Below, one piece after another: positions 13,987 to 59,201 of a stretch of 64,000 nucleotides of DNA; position 1 is the stretch's first letter, and each line of letters opens with the position of its first letter. The stretch covers positions 8,966-72,965 of the forward strand of contig JAONMX010000002.1 of the NCBI GenBank assembly GCA_028378565.1, in the 5' to 3' direction. The notes under the pieces were generated by a model. That model had not been told where the DNA came from. It saw only the letters and a program-made list of their open reading frames with translations, and made no database searches. Source of the DNA: Bacteriovoracaceae bacterium (GTDB taxonomy: Bacteria; Bdellovibrionota; Bacteriovoracia; Bacteriovoracales; Bacteriovoracaceae). A program made the position numbers and the translations under genes.

Positions 13987-13988
13987 TA

Positions 13989-16256: not shown

Positions 16257-16284
16257 TATACTGAATTAAGTTTATGTTTTATAA

Positions 16285-16308: not shown

Positions 16309-16317
16309 ATTGGAAAA

Positions 16318-29312: not shown

Positions 29313-32300
29313 TTATGGAACAGTTGCTTGTACGGCATTGACTGCTGTCCCGCTTGCTGTTGCATTGGCATTTATATTGGCACTATAACTACCACTACCA
29401 AGGAACGCTCCAAGGAAGGTCAGTTGTACTGTGCAAGTTGCTGCTGGTGCTAAGGTAGTTCCATTACAATTATCTGTTCCCACTAGCCAAGCTGCTGGAG
29501 CACTTCCATCCATATAGGTAGAGATCGTTCCAGATGTAACAGCACCATTATTTTCTAGAGTAAAGGTATGGGTAACATTCGTTGATTGTGGGCCGTAATT
29601 ATCTGGGTTTGGCGGAGTAGGGGAGGCACCACCAACTTGCCACGATAAATTTGCTGCTGCTGCATATGTGTAGGCACTTGCAAGGTTGCCTGTTTGTGTA
29701 TCTGGATTTGTAACCGTGGCAGTAATCGCACCTGCTGCGTGAGCCGTCGTCGTACATGTCAGTGATGTTGAATTATTAAATGTCACTGGCGTACAGGCAC
29801 TTCCACCAAAGTCTACTGTTGCTCCACTTACAAAGTTAACTCCTGTTATTGTCACTAAAGTCGAACCAGTTGTGGCACCACTATTTGGAGAAACACTGCT
29901 TACAGTAGGTGTCGGGCTATAGGTAAATCCTGATGATAAGTTTCCACTTTGAGCATCTGCATTTGTTACCGTTACAGTAACTGCTCCAGTAGCATGAGCC
30001 GTTGTGGTACATGTGATCGTTGTAGCATTGACTACCGTTATTCCACCGCAGGCACTACCTCCAAAATCAACAATTGCTCCAGCATAGTAACCTGAACCTG
30101 TTACGGTGACAGCTGTTCCGCCGGTTAATATTCCGCTATTTGGAGTAATGGATGTAACTGTAGGAGGGGCATCATAAGTAAAAGCACTCGCTTGATTTCC
30201 ACTTTGAGAATCAGCATTTATTACTGTCACAGTGACCGCTCCTGCTGCATGAGCAGTGGTGGTACATGTAATTGAGTTTGCTGTCACAACCGTAACACTT
30301 CCGCAGGCACTACCACCAAAGTCGACTGTCGCTCCAGTTAAAAATCCTGTTCCTGCAACTGTAACCGCACTACCGCCAGCTGTTGGACCTCTATTAAGGG
30401 TAACTGTCGTTACAGTTGGTGCTGCTTGATAAGTATAAGCAGTTGCCACATTACCAGTTTGTGTATCTGCATTGGTGACTGTTGCGGTAACGGCTCCAGC
30501 AGCGTGAGCAGTGGTTATACAAGTTAAAGTTGTAGAGCTTGTAACATTAACCGTTCCACAATTACTTCCACCTAAATCAACTGTCGCACCGGCGACAAAG
30601 TTTGTTCCGGTAACAGTAACTGTTGTTCCTCCTGCAAGAGCACCTGCATTCGGACTTACACTTGTGACATTTGGAGCAGGTTGATAAGTATAAACATTAG
30701 TACCTGTACCTGCTTGAGTATCAGGATTAATAACCATGACATTAACCGAACCTGCGGCATGAGTTGGTGTTGTACAATTAATTGTTGTCGCATTAACAAA
30801 AGTGACTCCGGTACATGGAAGACCGTCGATTGTGACAGTGGCTCCAGAGACAAAGTCTGTACCAGTAATAACAATGGTGGTACTACCAGCTAGTGCACCT
30901 GCACTTGGAGCAACGGAAGTTACACCAGGAGCAGGATCATAGGTATAAGCCGTGGCCAAAGAACCATTCTGTGTATCGGCATTGGTAACAGTAACGGTTT
31001 TAGCTCCAGTAGTATTGGCACCAGTTGTACATGTAATCGTTGTAGGACCTACAACATTAACACCACTACAAGCGACACCACCTATACTAACGCTAGCACC
31101 TGTAACATAACCAGTTCCCGTTATGGTAACGGCCGTTCCCCCTGCTAAAATTCCGCTTGTTGGGGCAACTCCACTAACTGTTGGAGCGGCTTGATAAGTA
31201 TAGGCCGTAGCTAAGTTTCCTGATTGAGTATCTGTATTGGTTACCGTGACAGTGACAGCTCCTGCAGCGTGTGCAGTGGTCGTACATGTAATTGAAGTTG
31301 CACTGACAACGGTGACTCCACCACAAGCACTTCCACCAAAATCAACTGTCGCACCGGCCGTATAACCACTACCTGTAATGGTAACGGCAGTTCCTCCAGC
31401 AAGGGCTCCCGCAGTAGGGGAAACACTGGTTACAGTTGGAGCCGGAATATAGGTAAAGCCACTGGCCAATGTTCCTGCTTGAGAATCTGAATTGGTAACA
31501 GTAACAGTCACCGCTCCAGTAGCGTGAGCAGTAGTCGTACAAGTTATAGAAGTTGAGGAAACTACCACGACAGATCCACAAGCACTTCCACCAAAATCAA
31601 CAGTGGCACCAGCTAAAAAACCTGTACCAGTAATAGTCACTGCGGTTCCTCCAGCGTTAGGGCCAGAGTTTGCAACAACAGATGTAACAGTCGGAGCTGC
31701 TATGTAAATATATCCCGTTGCTAAAGTAACAAATTGAGTATCGGCATTGGTCATGGTAACGGAAACAGCCCCATTTGCATGAGCACCGGTTATACAAGAA
31801 ATTGAAGTCGCACTAATAACGTTGACTCCTGTACAAGCACTTCCGCCGAAATCAACAGTTGCTCCTGCAACAAAACCTGTTCCCGTAAGAGTTACAGTTT
31901 GTCCGCCAGCTGAAGGTCCAAAGCTAGGACTTACATTTGAAAGAGTTGGTGCCAGTTGGTAAGAAAAGCCAGACGCAAGAGTTCCCGTTTGAGTATCAGG
32001 GTTAGTAACTGTGACCGTCACAGCTCCTACTGCGTGAGCAGTGGTGGTACAAGTCATTGAGGTTGAGTTGACAAATGTTACTGGCGTACATGCACTTCCA
32101 CCAAAATCAACGGTTGCACCACTAACAAAAGCAGTACCAGTTATGGTAACCAATGTTCCGCCTAAATTTGTTCCCGCACTATTTGTTACGCTTGTAACAG
32201 TGGGTGGAGGATCAAAAGTAAAGGCCGAAGCAAGTGTTCCCGTTTGGGCATCAGGGTTTGTCACTGTGGCCGTTACGCTTCCAGCAGCATGGGCAGTGGT

Positions 32301-34400
32301 GGTACAAGTCAATGAAGTAGAGCTAACAAAAGTAACTGGTGTACAAGCACTTCCTCCAAGATCAACAGTTGCTCCACTAACAAAATTAGTTCCAGTTACA
32401 GTGATTAAATCTCCACCGGTGTAAACTCCGTTACTAGGAGAAAGAGAAGTAATTGTTGGGTTAGGGTCATAGGTATAAGCCGCTGCCAGTGTTCCTGTTT
32501 GTCCATCTTGATTGGTCGCTGTAACACTGACACTGCCAGAAGCGTGAGCTGTCGTTGTACATGTTAGTTGAGTTGAGTTTACCCAAACGACACTTGCACA
32601 AGCACTTCCTCCAAAACTTATATTAGAAATATCAGAAGCAAAGTTTGTTCCATTGATTGTGACAGCTGTTCCTCCATCGTCCACTCCATTTGAAGGAACT
32701 ACTGAAGTGACAGTCGGGGCACCTTGGTAAGTAAAAGCACTAGCAAGTGTTCCACTTTGTGCATCAGTATTCGTCACGACCACATTTCCATTACCAGCAG
32801 TTCGTGCTGCCGTTACACAAGTCATCGTTGTTGAATTTACAACTGTAGCTGAGGTACATGATGTTCCAACGACTGATACCGAGGCACCAGTTCTAAAGTT
32901 TGTACCTGTTATTGTCATTGTTGTTCCACCAGCAAGTGGACCAGTGACCGGACTTACTGCAGTGACAGTTGGTGCGGCTTGAGTTGTATAAGAATTTACA
33001 AGTGTTCCTGTTTGAGTGTCAGGGTTCGTTACCACAACGTCGTATGTCCCTGCAGCCAGTGCTGGAGTTACACACGTCATTGAGATTGCATTTACAAAAG
33101 TCGGAACTGTACATGTAGAACCGCCAACTGTAATAGTAGCTCCGGAAACAAAATTAGTACCAGTTAAATTAATAGTTGCTCCACCACCAACTGGACCTGC
33201 ACTAAGAGTAACAGATGTTAGAGTCGGTGCTGCGATATAAGTAAATGAACCAGCAAGAGTTCCTATTTGTGTGTCTGGATTTGTAACAACTACATCATAA
33301 GTTCCAGCAGCACTTGCTCCCGCAGTACATGTTATGGAGGTTGCACTTCCTACGACAGGACTAGTACAAGTTGTGCCACCAATGGATACGGTAGCACCTG
33401 TTACAAAACCTGTTCCGGTAATAGTTACACCGGTCCCCCCTTGAGAGAGTCCACTTGTTGGAGCAATTCCAGTAACGGTAGGTGCAACTCTATATTCATA
33501 AGCATTTGCTAGCGATCCACTTTGGGTATCTGTATTTGTTACAGTTGCTGTTACAAGTCCTGCTGCATGAGCGTTAGTGGTACAAGTTAGAGAGGTTGAA
33601 CTTGCAACGATAACACCATTACAATTGCTCCCACCCAAGTCTACTGTTGCTCCTGTTAAAAAACCGGTACCAGTAATTGTTACGTTAGCGGCACCTATAA
33701 CTGGACCAGAATTTAGGCTAACACCTGTAACCGTCGGAGGAGGTTGATAGGTGTATCCATTAGTCAGAGTTCCTATTTCTCCATCATCGTTTGTAATGAC
33801 AATATCACCAGTTGCTGCTGCACTTGCTGATGTTACACAGGTTGCAGAAGTTGAAGAAACAATCGTGACAGTATTACAAGTTGAACCATTAACAGTTACG
33901 GTAGCACCGCTTCTGAAGGCAACACCTGTTAGAGTTAAAGTTGTTCCACCAAGAGTTGATCCAGAAGTGGGTGATACTGAAGTTATATTTGGAGTAGGGT
34001 AACGATAGGTAAAGGCATTTGCTAAAATCATTTCCTGGTTATCTGGATTGGTCACAGTAACATCATAGGTTCCAACAGTTCCAGAGTTCACATTACATGT
34101 AATTTGGTTACTGTTGATAAAAGAAACATTTGGACAATCAGTTGTTCCAATTTGGACTGTGGCACCAAAAGTAAATCCAGTACCTGTAATAGAAAGGGAG
34201 TAGCCTCCAGTATTTAATCCGTTACTTGGTGAGACTGAGGCCACTGAGGGAGCGGCTGGAGTAGAAGCGCCTTCTGATTTTTTGGCCTGCTTTACTCCAC
34301 CTTGCATACAAGAACTTATGAATAGGGTAATAAGAAATAGTCTTGATAATGAAATCAATTTTTCATAAATGAAAAGTGAAACAGCGTTTCGATTTCTCAA
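29313..34400 (-). CDS. Giant surface lipoprotein with 18 tandem IPT/TIG (Ig-like fold) domains and a distinct 113-aa C-terminal domain
   Basis: 1695 aa. Lipobox LFISSC. The 85-aa repeat consensus is APTVTSVSP..G...GGT.VTITGTGF..GATVDFGGSAC..V.VVS.TSITCTT.AHA.GAVTVTVTN.D.Q.G.L...FTY. Confidence 0.9.
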   Translation of the reverse strand: MRNRNAVSLFIYEKLISLSRLFLITLFISSCMQGGVKQAKKSEGASTPAAPSVASVSPSNGLNTGGYSLSITGTGFTFGATVQIGTTDCPNVSFINSNQITCNVNSGTVGTYDVTVTNPDNQEMILANAFTYRYPTPNITSVSPTSGSTLGGTTLTLTGVAFRSGATVTVNGSTCNTVTIVSSTSATCVTSASAAATGDIVITNDDGEIGTLTNGYTYQPPPTVTGVSLNSGPVIGAANVTITGTGFLTGATVDLGGSNCNGVIVASSTSLTCTTNAHAAGLVTATVTNTDTQSGSLANAYEYRVAPTVTGIAPTSGLSQGGTGVTITGTGFVTGATVSIGGTTCTSPVVGSATSITCTAGASAAGTYDVVVTNPDTQIGTLAGSFTYIAAPTLTSVTLSAGPVGGGATINLTGTNFVSGATITVGGSTCTVPTFVNAISMTCVTPALAAGTYDVVVTNPDTQTGTLVNSYTTQAAPTVTAVSPVTGPLAGGTTMTITGTNFRTGASVSVVGTSCTSATVVNSTTMTCVTAARTAGNGNVVVTNTDAQSGTLASAFTYQGAPTVTSVVPSNGVDDGGTAVTINGTNFASDISNISFGGSACASVVWVNSTQLTCTTTAHASGSVSVTATNQDGQTGTLAAAYTYDPNPTITSLSPSNGVYTGGDLITVTGTNFVSGATVDLGGSACTPVTFVSSTSLTCTTTAHAAGSVTATVTNPDAQTGTLASAFTFDPPPTVTSVTNSAGTNLGGTLVTITGTAFVSGATVDFGGSACTPVTFVNSTSMTCTTTAHAVGAVTVTVTNPDTQTGTLASGFSYQLAPTLSNVSPSFGPSAGGQTVTLTGTGFVAGATVDFGGSACTGVNVISATSISCITGAHANGAVSVTMTNADTQFVTLATGYIYIAAPTVTSVVANSGPNAGGTAVTITGTGFLAGATVDFGGSACGSVVVVSSTSITCTTTAHATGAVTVTVTNSDSQAGTLASGFTYIPAPTVTSVSPTAGALAGGTAVTITGSGYTAGATVDFGGSACGGVTVVSATSITCTTTAHAAGAVTVTVTNTDTQSGNLATAYTYQAAPTVSGVAPTSGILAGGTAVTITGTGYVTGASVSIGGVACSGVNVVGPTTITCTTGANTTGAKTVTVTNADTQNGSLATAYTYDPAPGVTSVAPSAGALAGSTTIVITGTDFVSGATVTIDGLPCTGVTFVNATTINCTTPTHAAGSVNVMVINPDTQAGTGTNVYTYQPAPNVTSVSPNAGALAGGTTVTVTGTNFVAGATVDLGGSNCGTVNVTSSTTLTCITTAHAAGAVTATVTNADTQTGNVATAYTYQAAPTVTTVTLNRGPTAGGSAVTVAGTGFLTGATVDFGGSACGSVTVVTANSITCTTTAHAAGAVTVTVINADSQSGNQASAFTYDAPPTVTSITPNSGILTGGTAVTVTGSGYYAGAIVDFGGSACGGITVVNATTITCTTTAHATGAVTVTVTNADAQSGNLSSGFTYSPTPTVSSVSPNSGATTGSTLVTITGVNFVSGATVDFGGSACTPVTFNNSTSLTCTTTAHAAGAITATVTNPDTQTGNLASAYTYAAAANLSWQVGGASPTPPNPDNYGPQSTNVTHTFTLENNGAVTSGTISTYMDGSAPAAWLVGTDNCNGTTLAPAATCTVQLTFLGAFLGSGSYSANINANATASGTAVNAVQATVP
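29655..34256 (-). repeat. 18 tandem coding repeats of about 255 bp (IPT/TIG units)
   Basis: Repeat boundaries counted from the protein (aa 49-1582). The region is visibly more GC-rich than its flanks because of its Gly/Ala/Thr/Val-rich codons. Confidence 0.85.
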
Positions 34401-34633: not shown

Positions 34634-36055
34634 ATGAAAAGAATCGCTATCATTGGTGGTGGGGCCGCAGGCCTTGCCAGTGCCACACTTCTGGCCAAAA
34701 AAGGACACTCAGTTGTGTTGTTTGAGTCCCATACTCACATTGGTGGCTGTGGTGGTTTCTTTCGTCGAGCAAAGTATATTTTTGATGTAGGTGCTACAAC
34801 CTTGAGCCCTATGAGTGAGCTGAGTCCACTGACTAAATTCTTAAATGATTTTGATATTCACGTAGATACAAAAAACTTAGAAACACCGATGACCATTTAT
34901 TCAGGTGATAAGAAAATATTTAGGTATAAGAATAGAGAAAAATGGATAAAAGAATTAGAGAGGCATTGGCCTGACATTGATCATCGACTTATCTGGGAAA
35001 AAATTTTTGGACTTTCTGATAGGTTATGGAAAAATACTGATCTCATTGAAAATATTTTTACTAAGTCACTTAGTTTTTCAATGGACCCTCTTTTGCTAGG
35101 TCTCAATTCTTTTTGGACTATGAAAAAATTCTTAGACTTTCATAATATTTACGATGAATCTTACATTAAGTTTCTTGATGAGCAGTTGATCATCAGTACG
35201 CAAGCACACTGTCATGATGTTAATTTTTTAATTGCGACTATTGGTCTTACTTACCCAGAGGATATGGTTTATCCCATGGGTGGGATCTCAAATGTCTTAA
35301 ATTTAATTGAAAAAAAAGCAAGAGAGTTGAGCGTTGATATTCAAACTAGAACTAAAGTTGAAAAGATAATAAAAAGCAAAGGTCTCTATAGAATTACTAG
35401 TAATAAAGGAGATGATGAGTTTGATATTGTCATAAGCACATTACCTTTAGTTAATACTGCAAAGCTTTATCAAGATAGAAAACTTTCAAAGATTTCGAAA
35501 AAATTTGTTGGAAAATATAGTGCTCTTACATTCTATATTGGAATGGACGATTTCTTGCTACCAGAAGAAAGTCTTTATCACCAAGTACATCTTAAGAAAG
35601 GAGAGTTACTTGATGATATTGGTGGTAGCCTTTTCTTTAGCTTTTCAAGACACGACGATAATAGCAAAGCCCCCAAGGGAAAGATTACTTTAACGTCATC
35701 CACTCATATCGAAAATTTTAACTTAGAGATGAACGAAGAGGACTATGAAAAATTTAAGAAAAAATTGAAAGAAAAATTTCTCGTTATTTTAAAGAAGTAC
35801 TTTCCAAATATTAAAACAGAATCTTTTGAGTTTTTTGAAATGGGAACACCTCGTACCTTTAAACGTTTTACCTCTAGGGAAGAAGGACTTGTTGGAGGCA
35901 TTCCACATGTCTTAAAGAATCATCCTTTATTATTCCCTAAACCAAATATTCTTGGAGAGAACTTTTACTTACTGGGTGATAATATATTTCCAGGGCAAGG
36001 AGTTGCATCAGTTGTTTTAGGAGCTCAGAATTTAATTAAGAAAAAATTTAGATAA
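34634..36055 (+). CDS. FAD-dependent oxidoreductase, phytoene-desaturase (CrtI-like) family
   Basis: N-terminal dinucleotide fold (IAIIGGGAAGLASATLLAKKGHSVVLFE). The 473-aa length and the C-terminal GDNIFPGQGV motif are typical of the family. Confidence 0.8.
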   Translation: MKRIAIIGGGAAGLASATLLAKKGHSVVLFESHTHIGGCGGFFRRAKYIFDVGATTLSPMSELSPLTKFLNDFDIHVDTKNLETPMTIYSGDKKIFRYKNREKWIKELERHWPDIDHRLIWEKIFGLSDRLWKNTDLIENIFTKSLSFSMDPLLLGLNSFWTMKKFLDFHNIYDESYIKFLDEQLIISTQAHCHDVNFLIATIGLTYPEDMVYPMGGISNVLNLIEKKARELSVDIQTRTKVEKIIKSKGLYRITSNKGDDEFDIVISTLPLVNTAKLYQDRKLSKISKKFVGKYSALTFYIGMDDFLLPEESLYHQVHLKKGELLDDIGGSLFFSFSRHDDNSKAPKGKITLTSSTHIENFNLEMNEEDYEKFKKKLKEKFLVILKKYFPNIKTESFEFFEMGTPRTFKRFTSREEGLVGGIPHVLKNHPLLFPKPNILGENFYLLGDNIFPGQGVASVVLGAQNLIKKKFR

Positions 36056-36294
36056 AGGAAAAGTTAAAACTAAAAAGGCGACTTCAAAATCCATTTTTCA
36101 ATCGCCAATATAATCTCATATGCGTTTTTGTCTCTGTATTAAAATTTTATAGGTAACTTGGTTATTATATAAGAACTCTTTTCTTACAATTCATTACTGA
36201 TTTATAAACCGATATTAGTTATTTGATGGTGGTTTCATGACGGTATATCGTAAATAGCCGATATTACATACTCACTGAATTTAATTAAAATGCT

Positions 36295-36963
36295 TTAGTA
36301 AGACTTTTTTCCGACTAAAGCGTTTTTAATTTTAAGAGAGTATTTCTCTTTTAATTTTGGATTACTTTGTTCAACCTTTTCAATTTCAGCAATAATGGCC
36401 TTAATGGTTTTAACAACGTCATTAACCATAAGCTTTCTTAAGACTCCAGCAAAAATACTCTTAGGCTCAACTAAGGAGACATAGTACATCAGAGTTTTAT
36501 TTTTATAGTTTGTAAAACTAGCACGACCATTAACAGAGTCAGCAGATGTCGATTTCACAAGATACCATTCCACCTCATAACCATCTTTAATTTTTTTTAA
36601 ATGGTGGCCATGGACGTAGACGCCATTTGAAAGTGGCCAAGGCATTTCCAACTCATACTCAACAAGAACATTGGTTGCAGTTGGCTGTTCAACAACTTTA
36701 CTTCTAGCAAGTTTAGGAACGTAATTTTTTTGATAATCATAAGCTGCGAAGATTCCCATACTATTTAAAGGTTGGGAGTTAACAAGTGCAAAGATTTTAA
36801 GTCGAGGCCATATCTTATTTTCAACTTTTTCTTTTAGAACAATAACTTTATTTTCTTCTAGATCTTTTATTTGGGAGTTAGAAAGAAGGTGAAGAGGAGC
36901 TCCTGCATTAGTGCGCGTAGCGTTAATTAGGAGAATAAGCCCTATAAGAATGATACTTTTCAT
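36295..36963 (-). CDS. Secreted SRPBCC/START-like (lipid-binding fold) protein, tentative
   Basis: I prefer the ATG at 36963 (MKSIILIGLILLINA...). The size and alternating beta-pattern suggest an SRPBCC fold. No catalytic motif. Confidence 0.4.
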   Translation of the reverse strand: MKSIILIGLILLINATRTNAGAPLHLLSNSQIKDLEENKVIVLKEKVENKIWPRLKIFALVNSQPLNSMGIFAAYDYQKNYVPKLARSKVVEQPTATNVLVEYELEMPWPLSNGVYVHGHHLKKIKDGYEVEWYLVKSTSADSVNGRASFTNYKNKTLMYYVSLVEPKSIFAGVLRKLMVNDVVKTIKAIIAEIEKVEQSNPKLKEKYSLKIKNALVGKKSY

Positions 36964-37082
36964 AAGCTCCTCAGAATCATAATAAAACCTGTTGTACATC
37001 TAGTTTTATTGACTGATTTGTAGATTTACAAGCTAATAATTTTGTTATAGCTTGGTGCAATAATTAGATCAAGGAATAAACA

Positions 37083-37703
37083 GTGAACAAAAAGACAGAT
37101 AGCTCTATCAGACTATTTGAAAATGACTTATTAGAGGCCATCACACATGTGCATCCAATTACTCCACTCGTTATGTGGTCGCCGGTAACCTGTTACTTGT
37201 TATGGCGTTCTTATACTGTTCACGCCTTAAGTTTTTTAGACTTTGTTACTTGGTTCTTTATAGCCATTTTAGTATGGACGTTTACTGAATATACAGTTCA
37301 TCGTTTTGTTTTCCATTATCCAGCGAAATCAAAAATTGGAAAAAAGCTAATCTTTTTATTTCATGGTATTCATCATGATGATCCTGATGATGCTACTAGG
37401 CTAGTGATGCCTCCTGTTCCAGGAGTTATTTTAATGGCGTTACTTTGGGGCTTCTTTCAACTTGTTATACCAGTAAAGTTTATGGATGCTTTCATGGCCT
37501 TTTTTATTGTAGGCTATCTTTGTTATGACTATATTCACTATGCCACTCACCATTTTCCAATGACCTCACCCGTTGGCAAATACTTAAGAAAATTTCATCT
37601 AAGACATCATCATGCTAAAGAGCATAGCAAATATGGTGTATCTAATCCTTTATGGGATTATGTTTTTAATACTGTGACTGGCCCAAAGAAAGATCAAAAA
37701 TAA
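37083..37703 (+). CDS. Fatty acid hydroxylase superfamily membrane enzyme
   Basis: Histidine boxes HRFVFH, HGIHHDD, HYATHH and HLRHHH within a roughly four-TM protein. Confidence 0.85.
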   Translation: MNKKTDSSIRLFENDLLEAITHVHPITPLVMWSPVTCYLLWRSYTVHALSFLDFVTWFFIAILVWTFTEYTVHRFVFHYPAKSKIGKKLIFLFHGIHHDDPDDATRLVMPPVPGVILMALLWGFFQLVIPVKFMDAFMAFFIVGYLCYDYIHYATHHFPMTSPVGKYLRKFHLRHHHAKEHSKYGVSNPLWDYVFNTVTGPKKDQK

Positions 37704-38515
37704 TGTCTTATAAATGTTTATTACTTTCTTTTTTTCTATCTATAACTATATCTGCAAGTGAAAGCAAAAAAGCAGAGGATGAGTCTCAAACTTGGATAGA
37801 CTTTAAAGAAACAGTCTCACTTTTTGCAAAGGGCTCTTACACTCAGTTTCAAACAAAGAGTAATCTTGCCTATGCAGCCGCAGCCGCTCCTGTTGTTTGG
37901 TATTCTTTTGAAAATGATAAGAGAATTCAAGCTCGTTATGGTGGAACAGAGATAAAAAATATTGTTGATCATGTTGGAGATGCTGGAGTTATCTTTAATT
38001 TTCCAGTTATACCTATTGGTTTTTATTACTATGGCCGTAAAAATAATAATGATCATCATATTCAATTTGCTAAAGAGTATCTGGCTGCAATGTATTTAAC
38101 TCTGGCAGAAACTGGTATCATGAGTTACTTCTATGTTCACTCGAGACCAGTTACTGGAGATGAGAGTTTTTGGGAAACTGAGTTTAGAGAAAAGTCTAGT
38201 TGGCCAAGTGGTCATGTTGTCCCATATATGACCCTCTTTTTTAAAACGCTACAATTTTATGGGCCAGCTTACGCTACAGCTCCTTTTGTCTTAACCATCA
38301 TGTCGAGTATGCAAAGAATGCAAGATAATAAGCACTGGTTATCAGATATTACCATGAGCTTTTTTCTAAGTGCTTGGGCCAGTGAAGGGGTGAGGAAAGC
38401 TGCAGGCTATAAAAAAAATCACCCATTTTATCGCTGGGTATTTGAAAACGATGCCTCCCTTTCACTTCTTAGATACCAAAACTCTGTAGGACCAAAACTA
38501 TCTTGGACTTTCTAA
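37703..38515 (+). CDS. PAP2-superfamily (acid phosphatase / lipid phosphate phosphatase) protein
   Basis: C2 motif PSGH (SWPSGHVV) and C3 motif R-x5-H-x3-D (QRMQDNKHWLSD). Its start overlaps the upstream stop by 1 nt (TAATG). Confidence 0.75.
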   Translation: MSYKCLLLSFFLSITISASESKKAEDESQTWIDFKETVSLFAKGSYTQFQTKSNLAYAAAAAPVVWYSFENDKRIQARYGGTEIKNIVDHVGDAGVIFNFPVIPIGFYYYGRKNNNDHHIQFAKEYLAAMYLTLAETGIMSYFYVHSRPVTGDESFWETEFREKSSWPSGHVVPYMTLFFKTLQFYGPAYATAPFVLTIMSSMQRMQDNKHWLSDITMSFFLSAWASEGVRKAAGYKKNHPFYRWVFENDASLSLLRYQNSVGPKLSWTF

Positions 38516-38557
38516 TTTAAAGTATCTTTTTTTTTGTATTCATCTTAAAATATCTTT

Positions 38558-40102
38558 ATGGCCAATGTATTTTTCTTAGGAAAAGATTCAGGATATTATC
38601 AAACAATCAAAGAAGTATTTGAGTCAGAATATTCTGGAGAAGAATTTCAGTACAAAGAGCAATTTCCAGATGATGTAGAAGAATTTCATAAAGTGGTTAT
38701 AGAAATAAAGAAATTTAATACAAATATTGTCTTTTTAGATTATGGAATGCTACCTGAAAAAGTATTAACTGTAGCGAGAACAATTCATCGTGCTATTCCT
38801 TCAGTAAAGTCTGTAATTGGTCTTTGGGATTTTCTTTCAACAAAGAAACTAATAGATGAAGGTAATATTACTGGAGTGGCCATAAGCCATATAAAGTCTG
38901 GAGAAGTTGGTGACGTAGTTCACCATGCAATGCAACTCTATACCCGTGCTAAATTTAGTATGCGTGAATTTGCCAAAGCTGAGAAATGTTTCAATGTAGA
39001 AATAAATGTTCAACATCAGATGAAGGTTGGCTTCATTACACCTGATTATGTACATGTAGAACACGACTTGTATCCTTGTGTAAGTGCACCTTTCCAATTA
39101 AAAACTTATTTTGGAAAAATATTTCCGATCACTCATTATAAAATAAAAAGAAAACTAAATAATAATTTCTATTATCATTATAAATATTCTTCAGACCTAT
39201 CTTTTCATTTTGAACCAGTCGTTAAGATAATTGGAGAAGAGTCGGAAAAAGATAAAAAATGGAGACTTGAACATCAAAAAGAAGTTGTTGCTAATAGGAA
39301 AAAACAAATTGAAAAGTTTTTTGATACATATCCTCATAGCTCTGTGCCGAAGAGAACAAAGCTACTTGTGATAGATCATGAATTACGTATTTTTGAGCAA
39401 TCAAAAATTCCACTTGATCATTATCCTTATTCTATTAGAGTGTATTCTAGCCTAGAAGAAACACCAGATGTTATCGATCGTGAAATGCCTGGTGTTGTCG
39501 CGATCCAGTGCCCAAAAGGCTCAGAAGGAGATCTTTCACTCCTCATTGAATCTATTGAAAAACACCCAAATCATTTACCATTTATCGTGGTATTTAACTC
39601 TCACTGGGACACTGAGAAACTTAAAGAACATTTTCAATACCAAAAAATTATTGCTCATACTGAAGATTTTGAATTAGATCTGGTTTTAAATTTATGTGAG
39701 GTCTATACAAAGTCTGGAGGTAGAGAGAAGTCTCACAATCAATCAGACTCGTATCATAACAAAGAACGTAGAGTTTATATTCCTAAGAATAGAAGTGAAA
39801 GCAATATTGATTATGATTTTAAAATTTTCTTAAATACGATTACAGAAGCCTATTTAACTTTCCAATGTCATGAAGAACTATCTTTTTTAGCACCATATAA
39901 TATTAAGAAACCGTTTAACTTTTCTATTACAGTACTAGAGAAGATTGATGATCCAGAATGGTGTCTAGACAGTATGAATCAGTACCTTGCGGTCATACAC
40001 TGCATTGGAGAAAGTGAAAAGAGTGCACTTAGAAGAAAGGTGAATGAATATATTCAAATGGCCAATGAAAAAGATAATGAAGAAAAGAATGAAGAAAAAT
40101 AA
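38558..40102 (+). CDS. Hypothetical cytoplasmic protein (514 aa), possibly an internally duplicated receiver-like architecture
   Basis: Long clean ORF. Two flavodoxin/CheY-like beta-alpha patterns are seen by eye (VFFLG...IVFLDYGM...VIGLWD and LLVID...VVAIQCP...FIVVFNS). No confident family. Confidence 0.55.
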   Translation: MANVFFLGKDSGYYQTIKEVFESEYSGEEFQYKEQFPDDVEEFHKVVIEIKKFNTNIVFLDYGMLPEKVLTVARTIHRAIPSVKSVIGLWDFLSTKKLIDEGNITGVAISHIKSGEVGDVVHHAMQLYTRAKFSMREFAKAEKCFNVEINVQHQMKVGFITPDYVHVEHDLYPCVSAPFQLKTYFGKIFPITHYKIKRKLNNNFYYHYKYSSDLSFHFEPVVKIIGEESEKDKKWRLEHQKEVVANRKKQIEKFFDTYPHSSVPKRTKLLVIDHELRIFEQSKIPLDHYPYSIRVYSSLEETPDVIDREMPGVVAIQCPKGSEGDLSLLIESIEKHPNHLPFIVVFNSHWDTEKLKEHFQYQKIIAHTEDFELDLVLNLCEVYTKSGGREKSHNQSDSYHNKERRVYIPKNRSESNIDYDFKIFLNTITEAYLTFQCHEELSFLAPYNIKKPFNFSITVLEKIDDPEWCLDSMNQYLAVIHCIGESEKSALRRKVNEYIQMANEKDNEEKNEEK

Positions 40103-40109
40103 CTTACGT

Positions 40110-41105
40110 TTATAGCCAGCCTCTTTCTTTATAGTCTTCATATGTCACTTTAATTGTTTTATATAAATCCCATTCATAGTTCATATTAAGTAACTCTACA
40201 GATTTTTGTCCACTACAGGTCCAGCTATCAGGTTCTAATTCGTAGAGTTTGTCTGGAGTAAGTCTAAACTCTATTGGAATAACTTTTCTCGCAGTATCTA
40301 TTGTATGGGCCAGTACTTTTACAAAGGAAAAGGGAACCACTAGATTAAGAGTTGATTTATTCATCGTGGACTTGATCATATCGATGAGCAACTCCATGGT
40401 AATCACCTGTGGGTGAGAAGCAAAAAAAGATTCATTATGCATCTTCTCTTGTGTTTCAACAGCTTTCTTGATTACTTGAATGAGATCGTAGACACAAATA
40501 AAACTATATTCTTTTGCTTTTGCATTGAGGCCAGCAAAGAGAACAAATCTGGAGTTAACCATTTTAAAAACATCGAGCACACCAGTATCTCGTGGTCCAA
40601 TAACCATTGGCGGTCGTATAATAGATGTACTCCACTCTTTTGGAGCGAGGTCTTCCAAGTATTTTTCTGCTTTCAGCTTTGATTTTCCATACCGACTTAT
40701 TGCATGAGTTGAGCATTCTTCAGTATGAAGTTTTCCTTTTGAACTAGGACCAACTGCTGCTAATGATGAAACAAGAATAAATTTTAAATTGCTATATTTA
40801 GACCTCAAATTTTCTATTAAATTTTTTGTGGCAAGAGCGTTTACATTGGTAAAAAGGTCTTCGTTAAATGAATGAACGACTCCTGCCGTATGGACAACGG
40901 CATCCAAATCAGATGGGAGTTCGTCAATCCATCCGATATCTCCCTGACTTGGTAGGTCGCCTTTAATCATTGTCCCTTGAACATTAAAAGCCGAGAATTT
41001 ATTTGGATTTCTTGCAAGGGAATATACTTGATGTCCTGCTTCGCTTAGTAAGTCACTTAAGTGGCTGCCAACAAACCCTGTAGAACCTGTTATTAATACT
41101 TTCAT
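40110..41105 (-). CDS. NAD-dependent epimerase/dehydratase-family SDR, a candidate ceramide reductase (CerR-like)
   Basis: MKVLITGSTGFVGSHL Rossmann motif and YGKSK catalytic motif. Its start overlaps the upstream stop by 1 nt. Confidence 0.8.
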   Translation of the reverse strand: MKVLITGSTGFVGSHLSDLLSEAGHQVYSLARNPNKFSAFNVQGTMIKGDLPSQGDIGWIDELPSDLDAVVHTAGVVHSFNEDLFTNVNALATKNLIENLRSKYSNLKFILVSSLAAVGPSSKGKLHTEECSTHAISRYGKSKLKAEKYLEDLAPKEWSTSIIRPPMVIGPRDTGVLDVFKMVNSRFVLFAGLNAKAKEYSFICVYDLIQVIKKAVETQEKMHNESFFASHPQVITMELLIDMIKSTMNKSTLNLVVPFSFVKVLAHTIDTARKVIPIEFRLTPDKLYELEPDSWTCSGQKSVELLNMNYEWDLYKTIKVTYEDYKERGWL

Positions 41106-42223
41106 TAGATTTCTTTTTGATAAATACGATATTTCTTATAAGGCTCTCCACCCATTCTAATGAGGGGTTTATTCATATTGAGGTTGTCCTCAAGAATCCA
41201 ACTCATTTCAATTTCACCGTAACCTTGCTCTTTAATTACTTGATGGGCCTTGGTGTAAAGGAGTGTCTCTAAACCCTTTTTTCTAAACTCTTTTTTCATA
41301 CCTAAGGTGATAACTCTACATCTATTGACATACTTCTTTTGGTTTAAGAGTTTAAATAATCCAGTTGGAAGTAATTTACCATTTGGAATTTTCTTCAATA
41401 CTTGATGAAGATCTGGAAGAGTTACGATAAAGCCAGCAGGTTTATTGTCTACTTCTACAATAATAATAAGTTTTTCATCAATAATTGTTTTAAGATCTTT
41501 TGCTGTATGTAGAAACTCTGCGGGAGTCATTGGGATAAAGCCCCAATTCTTTTCCCAGGCATCGTTATAAATTTCATGCATGAGATCCACTTCTGCATCC
41601 CAATTTTTCTTCTTAGCATGACGGTAAGTGATTTTTTCTTTTTTCTCAGTTCTATCAGCAATTCTTTTGATAATCTCTGGCATATCAAATTCTGTTTTTA
41701 GGCGATAAGCGATGAGATCTTTTGCTTTTGTATAACCATTCTTTTTATATAAGTCATCATGGTAAGGTTGGTTATAAGTCATCATGATTTGAGCTGGATC
41801 TTCAAAACCTTCTACAAGTGTTCCGCACTCATAATTTGTCGATGGGTTCATTGGTCCAAGGATACAATTGGCTCCTTTTTCTTTAAGCCATTTTTCAGCA
41901 GTATCAAAGAGCTTTTGAGCTATTCCTTGATCGTTTGGAAATTCGGTAAAGCCAATAAAACCTCTTTTTTCTTCGTGAAAATCATTATGGTTTTTATTCC
42001 ATACAGCAGAAATTCTACCTATTGGTTTTTTTCCTTGGTAAGCGACAAAGTTTTGCATATCGCTTGTTTCATAAAAGGGATGTTTTGGTTTTAATAAGTC
42101 AGCAACGGCCATTCTAAGGGGTGGTACCCACTTTTCATCACCTTGGTATAGATTCCATGGGGTATGAATAAAATCTTTAAGCTGTTTTGATGTTCGTACT
42201 GGTACAATTTTTACATCAGACAT
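41105..42223 (-). CDS. GNAT-fold N-acyltransferase, a candidate bacterial ceramide synthase (bCerS-like)
   Basis: I prefer the ATG at 42223 (MSDVKIVPV...), 10 nt after the Spt stop. About 372 aa, with a C-terminal GNAT-like core (RKKGLETLLYTKAHQVIKEQGY). Confidence 0.55.
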   Translation of the reverse strand: MSDVKIVPVRTSKQLKDFIHTPWNLYQGDEKWVPPLRMAVADLLKPKHPFYETSDMQNFVAYQGKKPIGRISAVWNKNHNDFHEEKRGFIGFTEFPNDQGIAQKLFDTAEKWLKEKGANCILGPMNPSTNYECGTLVEGFEDPAQIMMTYNQPYHDDLYKKNGYTKAKDLIAYRLKTEFDMPEIIKRIADRTEKKEKITYRHAKKKNWDAEVDLMHEIYNDAWEKNWGFIPMTPAEFLHTAKDLKTIIDEKLIIIVEVDNKPAGFIVTLPDLHQVLKKIPNGKLLPTGLFKLLNQKKYVNRCRVITLGMKKEFRKKGLETLLYTKAHQVIKEQGYGEIEMSWILEDNLNMNKPLIRMGGEPYKKYRIYQKEI

Positions 42224-42233
42224 TTTAAACCTT

Positions 42234-43436
42234 TTAATGAAATGTAGCAGGAATATCGAATTCTTTTTTGGCCTTAGCAAAGACCTCTAAAACTTTTGTT
42301 AACTCTTCTTTGTTATGTGTCGCCATATAACTTGTTCTGATTAAGGCCTCACCCTTAGGAACAGCAGGTGGAAGAACTGGAGTTGCAAAAATTCCATTAT
42401 CCATTAGATAGTTTGTTACTTGTAATGATTTCATTTCATCACCAATAAAGATCGGAATGATTGGTGTTTGAGAGTTGTACGTGTAGAAACCGATATCTTT
42501 GAAGCCTTCTCTTATAAATCCAACATTGGCCCATAAATTTTCATGAATAGGCTCATCGCTCATAATAACATCTAGGCATGCAGACACAGTTGCAACGGCT
42601 GATGGTGCCATTGAGGCAGAGAACATAAAACTTCTCGCATTATGTTTTATATAATCAACAAGGTCCGCTTTTCCAGAGATCACGCCTCCAATTGATGCAA
42701 AACTTTTTGAAAATGTACCCATGTTTAATTGAACATCGTCAGTAACATCAAAGAAGTTCATTGTCCCACGGCCACGGTCTCCCATGACGCCAATACCGTG
42801 AGCATCATCAATATAAACATGTGCTCCGTATTTCTTAGCAAGGGCAATAACCTCAGGCATTTTTAATAATTCACCAGTCATTGAGAAAACACCGTCTGCA
42901 ACAATCCAAACATTTTTGAATCGACTAATGTTTTCTTCTAAAACCTCTTCTAGAGATTCCATATTATTGTGCTTGTATTTAAATGTTGGACCAAGAGCTA
43001 ATCTTGAAGAATCAACGATACTTGCATGGTTTTCACTATCAAAGATGAGACAATCTTTCGGACCACATACTGCTGATATGGAGCCTAGGTTTGTTTGCAT
43101 CCCAGTACTAAAAATTAAAGCTGCTTCATGACCTAAGTACTTGGCGAGCTTCTCTTCTAATTCTTCGTGTATGGATAAGTTTCCATTTAAAAATCTTGAA
43201 CCTGTACAACCAGTTCCATAAATATCAATGGCCTTTTTTGCTTCTTCAACAACATGAGGATGGTGAGTTAAGCCTAAGTAGTTGTTAGAACCAATCATGA
43301 TTTGGTCTTTACCTTCTACGTTAACAACTGTTCCTTCACTGTTTTCAATTGATCTAAAGAAAGGGTAGAGGTTATTTTCACGCATGTGATTAACCTTTTG
43401 CATCATCCGATATCCGCGCAGCGTACTAATGTCCAT
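42234..43436 (-). CDS. spt: Alpha-oxoamine synthase, most likely serine palmitoyltransferase
   Basis: PLP-lysine motif GTFSKSFASIGG (the SPT/ALAS-style GTFSKS, rather than the GTLSKA/GTLGKA of BioF/Kbl). It appears colinear with my recollection of Sphingomonas SPT through the C-terminus. Confidence 0.75.
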   Translation of the reverse strand: MDISTLRGYRMMQKVNHMRENNLYPFFRSIENSEGTVVNVEGKDQIMIGSNNYLGLTHHPHVVEEAKKAIDIYGTGCTGSRFLNGNLSIHEELEEKLAKYLGHEAALIFSTGMQTNLGSISAVCGPKDCLIFDSENHASIVDSSRLALGPTFKYKHNNMESLEEVLEENISRFKNVWIVADGVFSMTGELLKMPEVIALAKKYGAHVYIDDAHGIGVMGDRGRGTMNFFDVTDDVQLNMGTFSKSFASIGGVISGKADLVDYIKHNARSFMFSASMAPSAVATVSACLDVIMSDEPIHENLWANVGFIREGFKDIGFYTYNSQTPIIPIFIGDEMKSLQVTNYLMDNGIFATPVLPPAVPKGEALIRTSYMATHNKEELTKVLEVFAKAKKEFDIPATFH

Positions 43437-43561: not shown

Positions 43562-44314
43562 TTAGTCTTTTGGCTTTGCTAACTTTTTACGCATTTCTTC
43601 CGCTCTGGCCTCGCCATTGATATGGATGAAGAGGTCTTCCTCAGTTCTAGAGCTTAAATCCATGAAGGCTATTCCTGCACACATTTTACCAGTAGGGTTA
43701 CCGGCCTTATCTTTTTCAGGGAATTGTGCTACTATCTTTGCTTTTGGAATAGCAAATTTCTTTCCATTGAAATGAAGTTCACAATCTGGAAACTCAGCGT
43801 CCTTTGCATATTTTTCATTTTCTTCGGGGTCATTAATGACAAATGATGTTCCTCCAGCACTTACATCAAGTCCGTCTAGAATATGATCATCATCAATTTT
43901 AAACTTTAGTTTAATAAAGCGACTGGCCATTAGACGATAGTTTGATCTTTGTTGGGTTTTAAACATATCTTTATTTAAAACAACAAAATATTCTTTTTTT
44001 TCTTTGCTATAAGTGAGGGCAGAGTAGGTAAAGTATTGAGACTTTCCTTCACCAATTTTCATAAAAACTTCTTTACCCGCTTTCTTACTGGTTCCAATTT
44101 TCGCAAGAAGTCCGCCGGAACTTTTTAAATTCAAACGACTATTCTCGGTATCAAAGGAAATACACTCAAACTCTTCTACATCTTTGTCACTCTTACCTTG
44201 AATCCAAAGGAAGACTTTCCATTTATCTTCGCAAGCACGCTCCATCATAGAGAACTTCTCTTCGTCATCTACGGGCGTAAAGTAATGTTTTTGATTAGCG
44301 TCTTTTGTTGCCAT
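43562..44314 (-). CDS. PilZ-domain (YcgR-like) c-di-GMP-binding protein
   Basis: RxxxR (QQRSNYRL) followed by D.SxxG (DVSAGGTSF), preceded by a YcgR-N-like domain. Confidence 0.75.
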   Translation of the reverse strand: MATKDANQKHYFTPVDDEEKFSMMERACEDKWKVFLWIQGKSDKDVEEFECISFDTENSRLNLKSSGGLLAKIGTSKKAGKEVFMKIGEGKSQYFTYSALTYSKEKKEYFVVLNKDMFKTQQRSNYRLMASRFIKLKFKIDDDHILDGLDVSAGGTSFVINDPEENEKYAKDAEFPDCELHFNGKKFAIPKAKIVAQFPEKDKAGNPTGKMCAGIAFMDLSSRTEEDLFIHINGEARAEEMRKKLAKPKD

Positions 44315-47125: not shown

Positions 47126-47713
47126 CTAAAAGATCATTGAATAATTTGCTGCCGGAGTAATGGCCTTTATCCTAACAGGGTAAGGGCTAAACTCTGCGAT
47201 ATGCTGACCAAATTTTATATCAGCTTCACTTAATCCATTTTTAATATAAATCCCTTCACCATCATCTTTCATGGCAAGAACTTCAATGGATGGGTGAGTA
47301 TGGGAGATGACAACTTCTTCAATGGTAATCCCACGTTGGCGAGCCTTTAAAATTAAATTGGCCATGGCCTTTTTAAAGTTCTGAGTAGGAAGGTAACCAC
47401 GCATGGATCCTCTGTAGATTTTACTTTCAATGATTTCATTTTGAGAATTGATAAGAGTTATCTGACATACTTCTTTTGGGTAGTAACTAAGAGTACTGGC
47501 TTTTAAAAGTTTCTTATCTGCTGCTTCGTTCTCTTTAACTTCTTGGTTATGATATTCATTTAGAGCTTTAATTTCTTTCCAAGTCAGGTGGTATATTTCA
47601 CTGACTCCTTTAGGTAATCTAATATCTCTAAAAAGTTTCCAAATTAAGCTTAGTGCTGGCATTGGACCTCTAAAATTAAATATATGATTGAAATTGTAGA
47701 CTAAATTGAACAT
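47126..47713 (-). CDS. Hypothetical protein with a weak JAB/MPN-like H-x-H...S-x-x-D pattern
   Basis: ISHTHPS...NGLSEADI. The spacing is longer than in the canonical JAMM motif. The start codon is uncertain. Confidence 0.35.
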   Translation of the reverse strand: MFNLVYNFNHIFNFRGPMPALSLIWKLFRDIRLPKGVSEIYHLTWKEIKALNEYHNQEVKENEAADKKLLKASTLSYYPKEVCQITLINSQNEIIESKIYRGSMRGYLPTQNFKKAMANLILKARQRGITIEEVVISHTHPSIEVLAMKDDGEGIYIKNGLSEADIKFGQHIAEFSPYPVRIKAITPAANYSMIF

Positions 47714-48715: not shown

Positions 48716-48740
48716 AAAAAGACCCAGTATTCACTGGGTC
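48714..48740 (-). terminator. Rho-independent terminator for the reverse-strand gene
   Basis: GACCCAG-tattca-CTGGGTC hairpin followed on the minus strand by T7. The hairpin overlaps the stop codon of 48739..49329. Confidence 0.6.
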
Positions 48741-49329: not shown

Positions 49330-49410
49330 AAATCCTCCCAGATTTAGATTTGTTTCAGTGAGAGGAAAGTACTGTGGATGCTGCAAAAGCACATTGCTCT
49401 AGGTCAAGAT

Positions 49411-57519: not shown

Positions 57520-57537
57520 ATTGTTGATCTCTCTTTT

Positions 57538-59136: not shown

Positions 59137-59201
59137 ATGAACTTCCTTGTTCTATAATAATAAAATCTAGCTATTATTATAGTTGAACAGGGTGTGAGAT
59201 G

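Follow-up and report, generated by a model that had tools for sequence, protein, structure and literature searches.

How might a marine predatory bacterium of the order Bacteriovoracales make its sphingolipids, and which proteins could modify them, carry them through the periplasm, and adjust their production? Older work ties the sphingophosphonolipids of Bacteriovorax/Halobacteriovorax-type bacteria to prey entry. We analyzed a 64,000-nucleotide stretch of DNA from a Bacteriovoracaceae bacterium (GenBank assembly GCA_028378565.1, contig JAONMX010000002.1, positions 8,966 to 72,965 of the forward strand), which we refer to as the window and to which all coordinates belong unless another locus is named. 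The window has a G+C content of ~35%, and neither Rfam families nor tRNAs were found in it. The closest named relatives of its proteins are from Halobacteriovoraceae, Bacteriovoracales, and "Oligoflexia" metagenome-assembled genomes (MAGs), together with one Tara Oceans protein. With a probability of roughly 0.8, we propose that the region under study is a sphingolipid (ceramide) biosynthesis locus. It would consist of a biosynthetic core; tailoring and transport genes for a fatty acid hydroxylase (FAH), a PAP2-superfamily protein (PAP2), and a START-fold protein; and genes for two candidate regulators, a PilZ-domain protein and a protein of 514 amino acids (aa). The presence of the genes, their families (by sequence or predicted fold), and their synteny are observations, from which we infer the enzymatic, transport, and regulatory roles.

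A Candidate Spt–bCerS–CerR Core

A first-pass annotation of this DNA had singled out a minus-strand trio of genes as likely ceramide genes and had listed eight open reading frames (ORFs) in all. Each of the eight was recovered in our ORF listing with the same coordinates and couplings, and the shorter starts that had been chosen for the GNAT protein (372 aa) and for a secreted protein (222 aa) agreed with alignments of their homologs. Searches of Pfam and NCBIfam bore out the family proposed in six cases out of eight and returned no match for the 222-aa and 514-aa products. Because each has clear homologs elsewhere, we take the eight ORFs to be genuine genes and not chance ORFs. Within the trio, the gene for the serine palmitoyltransferase (SPT) homolog Spt (42234..43436, minus strand, 400 aa) is followed, 10 nt beyond its stop codon, by the ATG at 42223 of the gene for a bCerS-type GNAT N-acyltransferase (41105..42223, minus strand, 372 aa). 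The stop codon of the latter overlaps by 1 nt, in the sequence TAATG at 41105, the start of a gene for a CerR-type extended short-chain dehydrogenase/reductase (SDR), a candidate ceramide (3-keto) reductase (40110..41105, minus strand, 331 aa). Both junctions were read directly from the sequence.

Spt is an α-oxoamine synthase (AOS) that matches Pfam Aminotran_1_2 with an E value of 1e-51. The sequence GTFSKS, initially proposed to be an SPT-style pyridoxal phosphate (PLP) motif, is indeed present and aligns with the GTFSKS PLP-lysine motif of the Sphingobacterium multivorum SPT. Its top NCBIfam model was the SPT model NF047600, an equivalog of the Cytophaga–Flavobacterium–Bacteroides (CFB) group, with 488 bits compared to a curated cut-off of 640 bits. 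The BioF/Kbl subfamily, Kbl, and BioF models scored 405, 380, and 367 bits, respectively, and the lowest competing score in this test against Kbl, BioF, and HemA was 235 bits. Because 488 bits falls below the cut-off, we did not file Spt under NF047600 and assign it, on sequence, to the broader SPT clade outside that narrow equivalog. In the Protein Data Bank (PDB), its top match was the S. multivorum SPT with 384 bits, while Kbl/BioF entries reached at most 274 bits (Kbl, 252 to 274 bits). We also built a neighbor-joining (NJ) tree of 74 sequences, comprising the window Spt, bCerS-adjacent synthases of other genomes, the S. multivorum SPT, the Escherichia coli BL21 Spt, and E. coli Kbl and BioF. 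In this tree, the window Spt lies within the bCerS-linked/SPT clade, and E. coli Kbl and BioF fall outside it with a bootstrap value of 90/100. Thus, the hidden Markov model (HMM) scores, the PDB scores, and the tree together place the window AOS with characterized SPTs, not with Kbl or BioF, and the proposal of the first-pass annotation withstands the main test that it had set itself.

The Spt protein is homologous to E. coli BL21 Spt and shares 75% identity with its ortholog in Halobacteriovorax marinus SJ. The Bacteriovorax precedent that had been invoked for the locus was borne out in the literature, as the SPT of Bacteriovorax stolpii has been characterized and the sphingolipid of this organism has a phosphonate head group (PMC6148460). 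Pfam scans of the window revealed no tdh or bio genes in the context of spt and no dedicated acyl carrier protein (ACP) or acyl-ACP synthetase beside it. Since no dedicated ACP or acyl-ACP synthetase adjoins spt, the acyl donor of the enzyme is probably acyl-CoA; the absence of these genes also fits the Bacteroidetes/delta-type SPT subgroup, which includes the characterized B. stolpii enzyme.

The second protein of the trio contains a Pfam GNAT domain and aligns over its full length with YghO of E. coli BL21 (residues 4 to 372 with residues 8 to 380, 35% identity, E value of 7e-75). It has 6643 homologs, and a PDB sequence search with it gave no usable match. The SDR matches Pfam Epimerase with an E value of 1.5e-25 and carries an N-terminal TGSTGFVG sequence of the Rossmann type and a YxxxK motif, YGKSK. 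Its similarity to the product of the BL21 "epi" gene ECD_02852 is 26% identity over 311 residues (E value of 2e-22), a homology to its family that is weaker than that of Spt and bCerS to theirs. The BL21 genes yghO (ECD_02850) and ECD_02852 have been named as homologs of the Caulobacter genes CC_1154, for the acyltransferase (aca/bCerS), and CC_1164, for the reductase (PMC9386255). The three minus-strand proteins are thus homologs of Spt, bCerS, and CerR, as the first-pass annotation had it.

To place the trio in a wider context, we scanned one genome per species for relatives of the GNAT protein, which yielded at least 594 loci, and compared the best 80. These come from Bdellovibrionota, Myxococcota, Bacteroidota, Acidobacteriota, Gemmatimonadota, Calditrichota, Zixibacteria, and other phyla. 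A Spt homolog adjoins bCerS in ~65 of the 80 loci and a CerR-type SDR lies in the cluster in ~50, so that the trio is clustered across many phyla. The three ceramide genes have been described as "often found clustered," with Spt-like genes in ~40 phyla (PMC11334938). As the linkage of the trio matches this published clustering, the three-gene block is, by homology and gene order, a new member of the published Spt–bCerS–CerR ceramide system.

In the mechanism that we propose, a minus-strand core operon, PilZ–spt–bCerS–cerR, would build the lipid. Spt would join serine and an acyl thioester to give 3-ketosphinganine, the YghO/CC_1154-type GNAT protein would N-acylate this product, and the CerR-type SDR would then reduce the 3-keto group to form dihydroceramide at the cytoplasmic face. 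Acylation is placed before reduction because this is the order of the Caulobacter pathway, a proposal cited in PMC9386255.

A Lineage-Specific Accessory Module Adjoins the Core

To determine synteny, we searched each fetched locus with BLAST and HMMs. The loci are given L numbers; among these, L002 is JBLHVN010000003.1, L044 is from Chitinophagaceae bacterium MMS25-I14, and L090 is from H. marinus SJ (FQ312005.1). The genes for FAH, PAP2, the 222-aa protein, and the 250-aa PilZ protein adjoin the core only in Bacteriovoracales-type loci (L001–L006, L081–L083, L086, and L087). The set was not found beside the core in the other Bdellovibrionota (L007–L012 and L021) or in other phyla among the fetched loci. 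The common order begins with a minus-strand PepN gene, continues with the 250-aa protein, Spt, bCerS, and CerR in one direction, meets the oppositely directed FAH, PAP2, and (where present) 514-aa genes in the reverse of that order, and closes with the 222-aa protein gene in the original direction. FAH, PAP2, the START-like gene, and the PilZ gene are so arranged in L001, L002, L004, L006, L081, L083, L086, L087, and H. marinus SJ. The complete genome of this cultured organism has, at ~1.158 to 1.180 Mb, the same arrangement minus the 514-aa gene, with protein identities of 43 to 75%. In L086, spt lies ~5 kb from bCerS, and FAH, PAP2, and the START-like gene remain with bCerS–CerR. The expectation that the flanking genes would be syntenic with the core in relatives thus holds for FAH, PAP2, the secreted protein, and, within a subclade, the 514-aa protein; it fails for the CrtI-like gene considered below.

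One locus of this type has an unexpected label. The 730-kb contig L002, labeled "MAG: Sulfitobacter sp.," has a full Bacteriovoracales-type locus (bCerS, 58% identity; Spt, 72%; PilZ, PAP2, FAH, and START-like genes), and its taxonomic label or binning is probably wrong.

In the window, FAH (37083..37703, plus strand, 206 aa) and PAP2 (37703..38515, plus strand, 270 aa) overlap by 1 nt at 37703 in the ORF listing. The 514-aa gene (38558..40102, plus strand) would be the final gene of their operon and converges with the SDR gene, the two stop codons lying 7 nt apart. Upstream of FAH lies a candidate promoter-like element, recognized by its resemblance to the consensus (37025..37059, plus strand, TTTACA-N15-TATAGCTTGGTGCA). 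A near-identical element is found in the intergenic region between the 222-aa gene and FAH in L081, L083, L086, and L087; a consensus scan of the window for promoters and terminators was not enriched over shuffles. FAH, PAP2, and the 514-aa gene would form a second operon, convergent on the core, with a conserved promoter-like element to itself.

FAH Resembles Ceramide Acyl Hydroxylases

FAH matches Pfam FA_hydroxylase with an E value of 1.7e-19 (71 bits compared to a cut-off of 31). It aligns with yeast Scs7p (PDB 4zr0/4zr1), a 2-hydroxylase of very-long-chain fatty acids in ceramide, across the entire hydroxylase domain with 37% identity (E value of 1e-25), and its His boxes, HRFVFH, HGIHH, HYATHH, and HLRHHH, all align with those of Scs7p. 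The di-iron hydroxylase of the window, first described simply as a His-box fatty acid hydroxylase, can thus be specified as a homolog of the Scs7/FA2H-type ceramide acyl 2-hydroxylases. Like yeast Scs7p and human FA2H, it has the full hydroxylase domain, and its three strongly hydrophobic segments, with helices at 1.5 to 2.0 on the Kyte–Doolittle (KD) scale, fit a membrane enzyme. Unlike Scs7p, which has an N-terminal cytochrome b5 domain, FAH resembles the catalytic domain only, as its alignment starts at Scs7p residue 185, so that it may work like Scs7p without sharing its full architecture. On this similarity, FAH is a candidate ceramide N-acyl 2-hydroxylase that would most likely hydroxylate the amide-linked acyl chain at position 2.

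FAH is syntenic in all informative Bacteriovoracales-type loci, and in Chitinophagaceae and Cyclobacteriaceae, homologs with 37 to 44% identity occur at a distance of 5 to 8 kb from bCerS. In the Chitinophagaceae locus L044 (8763–19709 of that locus), a single strand carries, in order, Spt, bCerS, CerR, MIPS, PgpA, GtrA, DUF5686, a CDP-alcohol phosphatidyltransferase (with DUF4833), FAH, and PAP2_3, an array that is a complete inositol-phosphoceramide "super-operon" and includes the inositol-lipid genes known from Bacteroides. The positions of FAH in L013, L040, L042, L055, L062, and L078 resemble that in L044. Thus, in two phyla, represented by the window type and by L044, FAH is followed by a PAP2-superfamily gene and the pair is linked to ceramide genes. 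H. marinus SJ has another gene of the FA_hydroxylase family, distinct in type from FAH (647–1537 of L090, 296 aa), which lies ~7 kb upstream of spt, at a distance of ~11 kb from the FAH of the cluster. This gene possibly encodes a long-chain-base hydroxylase, and no counterpart of it was seen near the locus in the window.

PAP2 Is Predicted to Be an Exported Protein

PAP2 matches the Pfam PAP2 model with an E value of 3e-9 (37 bits compared to a cut-off of 27), as do all eight of eight orthologs, and the motifs H-x-R-P, PSGH (C2), and R-x5-H-x2-SD (C3, consensus SRxxxxxHxxxD) are invariant in the orthologs. The protein begins with a segment resembling a cleavable N-terminal signal peptide, and its hydropathy is weak, with KD peaks over 19 residues of no more than 1.4 and a grand average of hydropathy (GRAVY) of −0.21; by the same method, the FAH helices reach 1.5 to 2.0. 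We considered an ordinary polytopic inner-membrane phosphatase and rejected it, as the hydropathy is too weak. The original designation as a PAP2 phosphatase is thus refined: the family and the synteny stand, and, given the signal peptide and the weak hydropathy, the protein is not a typical polytopic membrane phosphatase. We instead take it to be exported, and it may be soluble or peripheral. All orthologs end in GP-x-(V/L)-S-(W/L)-x-(F/Y/L), encoded at 38440–38515 in the window, a motif that recalls the signal at the C terminus of outer-membrane proteins.

PAP2 is syntenic in eight of nine informative Bacteriovoracales-type loci and in H. marinus, and it seems the easiest of the accessory genes to dispense with. 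In L003, a phosphofructokinase gene (5982–6971 of that locus) sits exactly at the position that PAP2 has in relatives, and in L001, PAP2 is split into two ORFs (12073–12951). Three of eight PAP2 orthologs also match PAP2_3 (best E value of 9e-7), a model for which the window protein gave no match at E ≤ 1. In Bacteroides, knockout identified BT_1522, an AUR1-like member of the PAP2 superfamily, as phosphoinositol-dihydroceramide synthase (PMC9246714). There is thus, by analogy, a bacterial precedent for a ceramide head-group transferase of PAP2 type, and the window protein is a candidate for either a phosphatase or a head-group transferase. Its most likely target, outside the cytoplasm, would be a head group containing phosphorus or a sphingolipid intermediate in phosphorylated form.

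A Secreted Protein with a Predicted START Fold

The 222-aa gene (36295..36963, minus strand) is divergent from FAH, and its product has a hydrophobic, signal-like N-terminal segment. No Pfam or NCBIfam model, START and Polyketide_cyc included, matched it even at E ≤ 10; its family comprises ~500 clusters at 50% identity, all of ~220 aa and without a curated family. An AlphaFold2 (AF2) model computed from a 14-sequence alignment has a predicted local distance difference test (pLDDT) score of 88 and a predicted TM-score (pTM) of 0.83, and it displays the helix-grip START/SRPBCC fold. The early description of a secreted SRPBCC-like protein thus agrees with the predicted structure. Foldseek matched the model to the Xanthomonas STAR-related lipid transfer protein (3qsz, E value of 2e-9) and to STARD10 and CERT START–ceramide complexes (E values of ~1e-7), with target TM-scores (TMt) of up to 0.8 and identities of 14 to 18%. 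The top matches are thus lipid-transfer START domains with the same predicted helix-grip fold. In being a single domain preceded by an N-terminal export signal, the window protein resembles the periplasmic Xanthomonas protein, whose crystallized form starts at residue 25; it differs from the CERT/START family in having no detectable sequence-family membership. Wherever a Bacteriovoracales-type locus was informative, a homolog adjoined FAH; none was seen in the other loci examined. On its predicted fold, the protein is a candidate for periplasmic lipid (sphingolipid) binding or shuttling, and it would most likely bind a hydrophobic product in the periplasm.

In L081, the closest relative (bCerS, 83% identity), a pstSCAB phosphate-uptake operon lies between the START-like and CrtI-like genes (12672–17349 of that locus). 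Some bacteria increase sphingolipid production under phosphate limitation; the insertion in L081 may be coincidental.

Two Candidate Regulators

Next to spt on its upstream side, in the same orientation and beyond the range that the first-pass annotation covered, lies a conserved gene for a 250-aa PilZ-domain protein (43562..44314, minus strand), which must be added to the gene set first drawn up. The RxxxR motif (QQRxNYRL; QQRSNYRL in the window) and the DxSxxG motif (D(I/V)SAxG; DVSAGG in the window) are invariant in nine orthologs, seven of which match Pfam PilZ (PF07238; best E value of 8e-9). The window copy itself is a weak match (E value of 0.039, 14.7 bits compared to a cut-off of 22.5). 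The gene lies upstream of spt in H. marinus SJ and in L001, L002, L004–L006, L081, and L083. L003 has a less strong match (E value of 7e-35), and in L086, the homolog is on the spt strand with a small ORF between the two. These features make the 250-aa protein a candidate c-di-GMP (cyclic diguanylate) receptor.

The 514-aa protein, which is predicted to be cytoplasmic, was at first called simply unknown. Indeed, no sequence-level match was found in Pfam, and its family numbers 16 proteins with identities down to 27%. Its AF2 model (pLDDT of 86.5, pTM of 0.84), by contrast with that designation, predicts a signaling-type architecture in which a receiver-like domain, a β-barrel, and a helix occur twice in succession. 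Foldseek matched it to the tandem receivers of PleD, to CheY-like proteins, and to the PilZ barrel of YcgR. Residues D10, D61, and K113, all invariant, are found where predicted strands 1, 3, and 5 end, at the places of the acidic pocket, the phospho-acceptor, and the lysine of receiver domains. As the family has no sequence similarity to CheY, phospho-acceptance is no more than a conjecture. The conserved Thr/Ser after strand 4 is not present, and a profile comparison between the PilZ protein and the 514-aa family gave no match. Homologs with 36 to 67% identity lie between PAP2 and CerR in L081, L083, L086, and L087; the locus comparison found none in L001, L002, L004, L006, or H. marinus. 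A strain-specific insertion was considered and rejected, as the position is kept down to 36% identity, even in L086 with its displaced spt. By its predicted architecture, the 514-aa protein is a candidate regulator, and together with the PilZ protein it could couple sphingolipid output to c-di-GMP or phosphorelay signaling.

The insert between spt and bCerS in L086 (13832–18601 of that locus) contains a HisKA/HATPase histidine kinase and thioredoxin/DsbD-type genes. The histidine kinase, which is next to bCerS, could be a partner of the receiver-like 514-aa protein.

Weighing the Assignment

The assignment of a sphingolipid locus to this organism is drawn from sequence and predicted structure, and a number of observations weigh against it. 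For the core, the link of bCerS and CerR to Caulobacter uses the E. coli BL21 homologs as a bridge, and CerR is not in the cluster in L003 and L004. Spt falls short of the curated SPT cut-off, as described above, and it is also matched, at 246 bits, by a cysteate-C-fatty acyltransferase (28eh), the amino-acid substrate not being readable from homology. The synthase might use an amino acid other than serine (for example, cysteate, alanine, or glycine), and the product might be not a true ceramide but a sulfonolipid or an N-acyl amino lipid of the 1-deoxy type. Substrate choice in the AOS family is set by a few residues, and the cysteate enzyme and BioF/Kbl enzymes are clear homologs of Spt at 246 to 274 bits. 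We nevertheless consider such a product improbable, as the nearest characterized relative of Spt is, by more than 100 bits, a true SPT, the clade that holds Spt has members linked to bCerS and CerR, and the related B. stolpii makes sphingolipids with a characterized SPT. Still harder to credit is that the AOS is a housekeeping enzyme of the Kbl/BioF type in a three-gene block unrelated to sphingolipids. The enzyme does belong to the general family, and the Kbl/BioF models score strongly (367 to 405 bits), but SPT models and structures score best, Kbl and BioF are excluded from its clade at 90/100, its gene is linked to bCerS and CerR homologs across phyla, and tdh and bio genes are not in its context.

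The accessory genes also give grounds for doubt. With respect to the product, no phosphonate-biosynthesis genes were found in the window, where there is no PEP (phosphoenolpyruvate)-mutase motif and Pfam scans of 17–29 kb and 47–60 kb gave nothing relevant. PAP2 is very divergent. The lysine of its C1 motif (KxxxxxxRP) is replaced by Ser in all orthologs, the gene is gone from L003, a PDB sequence search with the protein gave no match, and hhalign found nothing between the PAP2 family and the PAP2_3 protein of L044; it might instead work on lipid A, on undecaprenyl phosphate, or on the lipids of prey. The START fold also occurs in enzymes, and polyketide cyclases match the 222-aa model, while a profile comparison of the 514-aa family with CheY revealed no sequence similarity. 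A rival that we judge unlikely would give FAH, PAP2, and the START-like protein a part in some other envelope process, such as lipid A/undecaprenyl-phosphate remodeling or attack on prey lipids, and would explain their place beside the ceramide genes by the clustering of envelope genes in this lineage. In its export and weak hydrophobicity, PAP2 resembles secreted class A phosphatases, profile searches with it marginally touch PhoN and PgpB-type phosphatases, and it has a weak NCBIfam match to undecaprenyl-diphosphate phosphatase. Unrelated genes, PepN among them, show just as much synteny, and the absence of the accessory genes from the non-Bacteriovoracales sphingolipid loci examined indicates that they are not required for ceramide synthesis as such. 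Yet FAH is specifically Scs7/FA2H-like, that is, of the ceramide acyl hydroxylase family, and it adjoins Spt–bCerS–CerR in a second phylum too, there with a PAP2_3 gene. FAH and PAP2 are translationally coupled through their 1-nt overlap, and these two genes and the START-like gene stay by bCerS–CerR in L086 although spt there sits 5 kb off. A sphingolipid locus with its own tailoring, transport, and regulatory genes is, on balance, the reading that we favor.

Neighboring Genes

A CrtD/CrtI-family FAD oxidoreductase gene (34634..36055, plus strand, 473 aa) lies beyond the START-like gene. It matches TIGR02733 with 195 bits compared to a cut-off of 550. The desaturation role first suggested for it was not supported by synteny: a homolog (52% identity) is near the cluster only in L081, past the pstSCAB operon, and none was found by the cluster in L083, L086, L087, L001–L006, or L090. 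We accordingly rejected this gene as the sphingolipid desaturase of the locus and, because it is not conserved with the cluster, treat it as a neighbor that is probably outside the ceramide system.

A few further genes of the window deserve mention. A minus-strand gene at 29313–34400 encodes a 1695-aa protein with 18 IPT/TIG repeats and has a G+C content of 44 to 46%, compared to ~35% in the remaining window; this composition may be a repeat-driven effect or mark an acquired surface protein. Three successive minus-strand genes at 55288–60575 encode an adenylate/guanylate cyclase with a CHASE2 sensor (55288–57519), a TPR protein (57538–59136), and a FecR-domain protein (59202–60575), a trio that looks like a signaling module unrelated to the ceramide locus. 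A radical SAM/SPASM-domain protein (47807–48715, plus strand) adjoins small proteins without a family match (47126–47713 and 48739–49392), with which it could form a peptide-maturation pair.

Discussion

The core chemistry of the locus is ordinary; its novelty is a lineage-specific, conserved accessory module of Bacteriovorax/Halobacteriovorax-type predators. The first-pass annotation had anticipated as much in calling the core known chemistry and the flanking set undescribed: the trio matches the published cluster, and we found no description of the accessory set of Bacteriovoracales in the literature. Literature searches on a sphingophosphonolipid synthase, on bacterial PAP2 proteins in sphingolipid clusters, and on the sphingolipid genetics of Bdellovibrionota likewise returned nothing relevant.

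The module supplies gene candidates for two processes. For the crossing of the periplasm by bacterial sphingolipids, these are the exported START-fold protein and the exported PAP2 enzyme; for the regulation of sphingolipid synthesis, they are the PilZ protein and the receiver-like 514-aa protein. In addition, the pairing of a Scs7/FA2H-type hydroxylase with a PAP2-family gene recurs by bacterial ceramide genes in two phyla. Since all candidates save the 514-aa protein have orthologs in the cultured, fully sequenced H. marinus SJ, most of these ideas are directly testable. A bolder and, in our estimate, doubtful idea is that the Bacteriovoracales sphingolipid reaches the outer membrane independently of Lpt proteins, by way of the START-fold protein as a periplasmic CERT-like shuttle that may hand its cargo to PAP2, which would complete or remodel the phosphorus head group, with flux through Spt gated by PilZ/c-di-GMP and the 514-aa protein. 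If so, the sphingolipid content of the envelope would be tied to the predatory life cycle.

Comparison with known systems sets these candidates in relief. The Caulobacter crescentus Spt–bCerS–CerR ceramide pathway was reportedly described by Stankeviciute et al. in 2022 and Olea-Ozuna et al. in 2021. The Caulobacter and E. coli BL21 yghO–spt systems have the same three enzyme families in a cluster, and the GNAT, SDR, and AOS proteins of the window are homologous to the BL21 set. However, the window Spt belongs to the Bacteroidetes/delta-proteobacterial SPT subgroup, whereas the Caulobacter and BL21 enzymes belong to the alpha/gamma subgroup. The alpha- and gamma-proteobacterial loci are flanked by genes for ACP, acyl-ACP synthetase, and LptF2/LptG2 paralogs, none of which lies beside the window spt. 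The candidate acyl hydroxylase of the window is Scs7-like and in the cluster, unlike the DesA-family protein CC_0202 of Caulobacter, which is encoded elsewhere in the genome. The START-like, PAP2, PilZ, and 514-aa genes were found neither in the BL21 locus examined nor in any non-Bacteriovoracales locus compared. With the sphingolipid and inositol-lipid cluster of Bacteroidota (BT_1522–BT_1526; L044), the window shares a Scs7-like hydroxylase gene directly before a PAP2-superfamily gene, linked to ceramide genes. The Bacteroidota protein is, however, of the PAP2_3 type, while the window protein fits the general PAP2 model and has a signal peptide and weak hydropathy, and the inositol-lipid genes of Bacteroidota (MIPS, PIP synthase, and PgpA) have no counterpart in the window.

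The periplasmic and outer-membrane steps of sphingolipid transport have been called unsolved and probably taxon-dependent in a 2026 preprint of the Klein laboratory (bioRxiv 10.64898/2026.04.12.717747). The Caulobacter LptF2/LptG2 export system that it concerns and the window locus face the same problem of moving a sphingolipid from the inner to the outer membrane, and both have transport candidates within the sphingolipid locus. Whereas those of Caulobacter are Lpt paralogs, of which the window locus has none, its only export-related candidates are two exported proteins, the START-like protein and PAP2.

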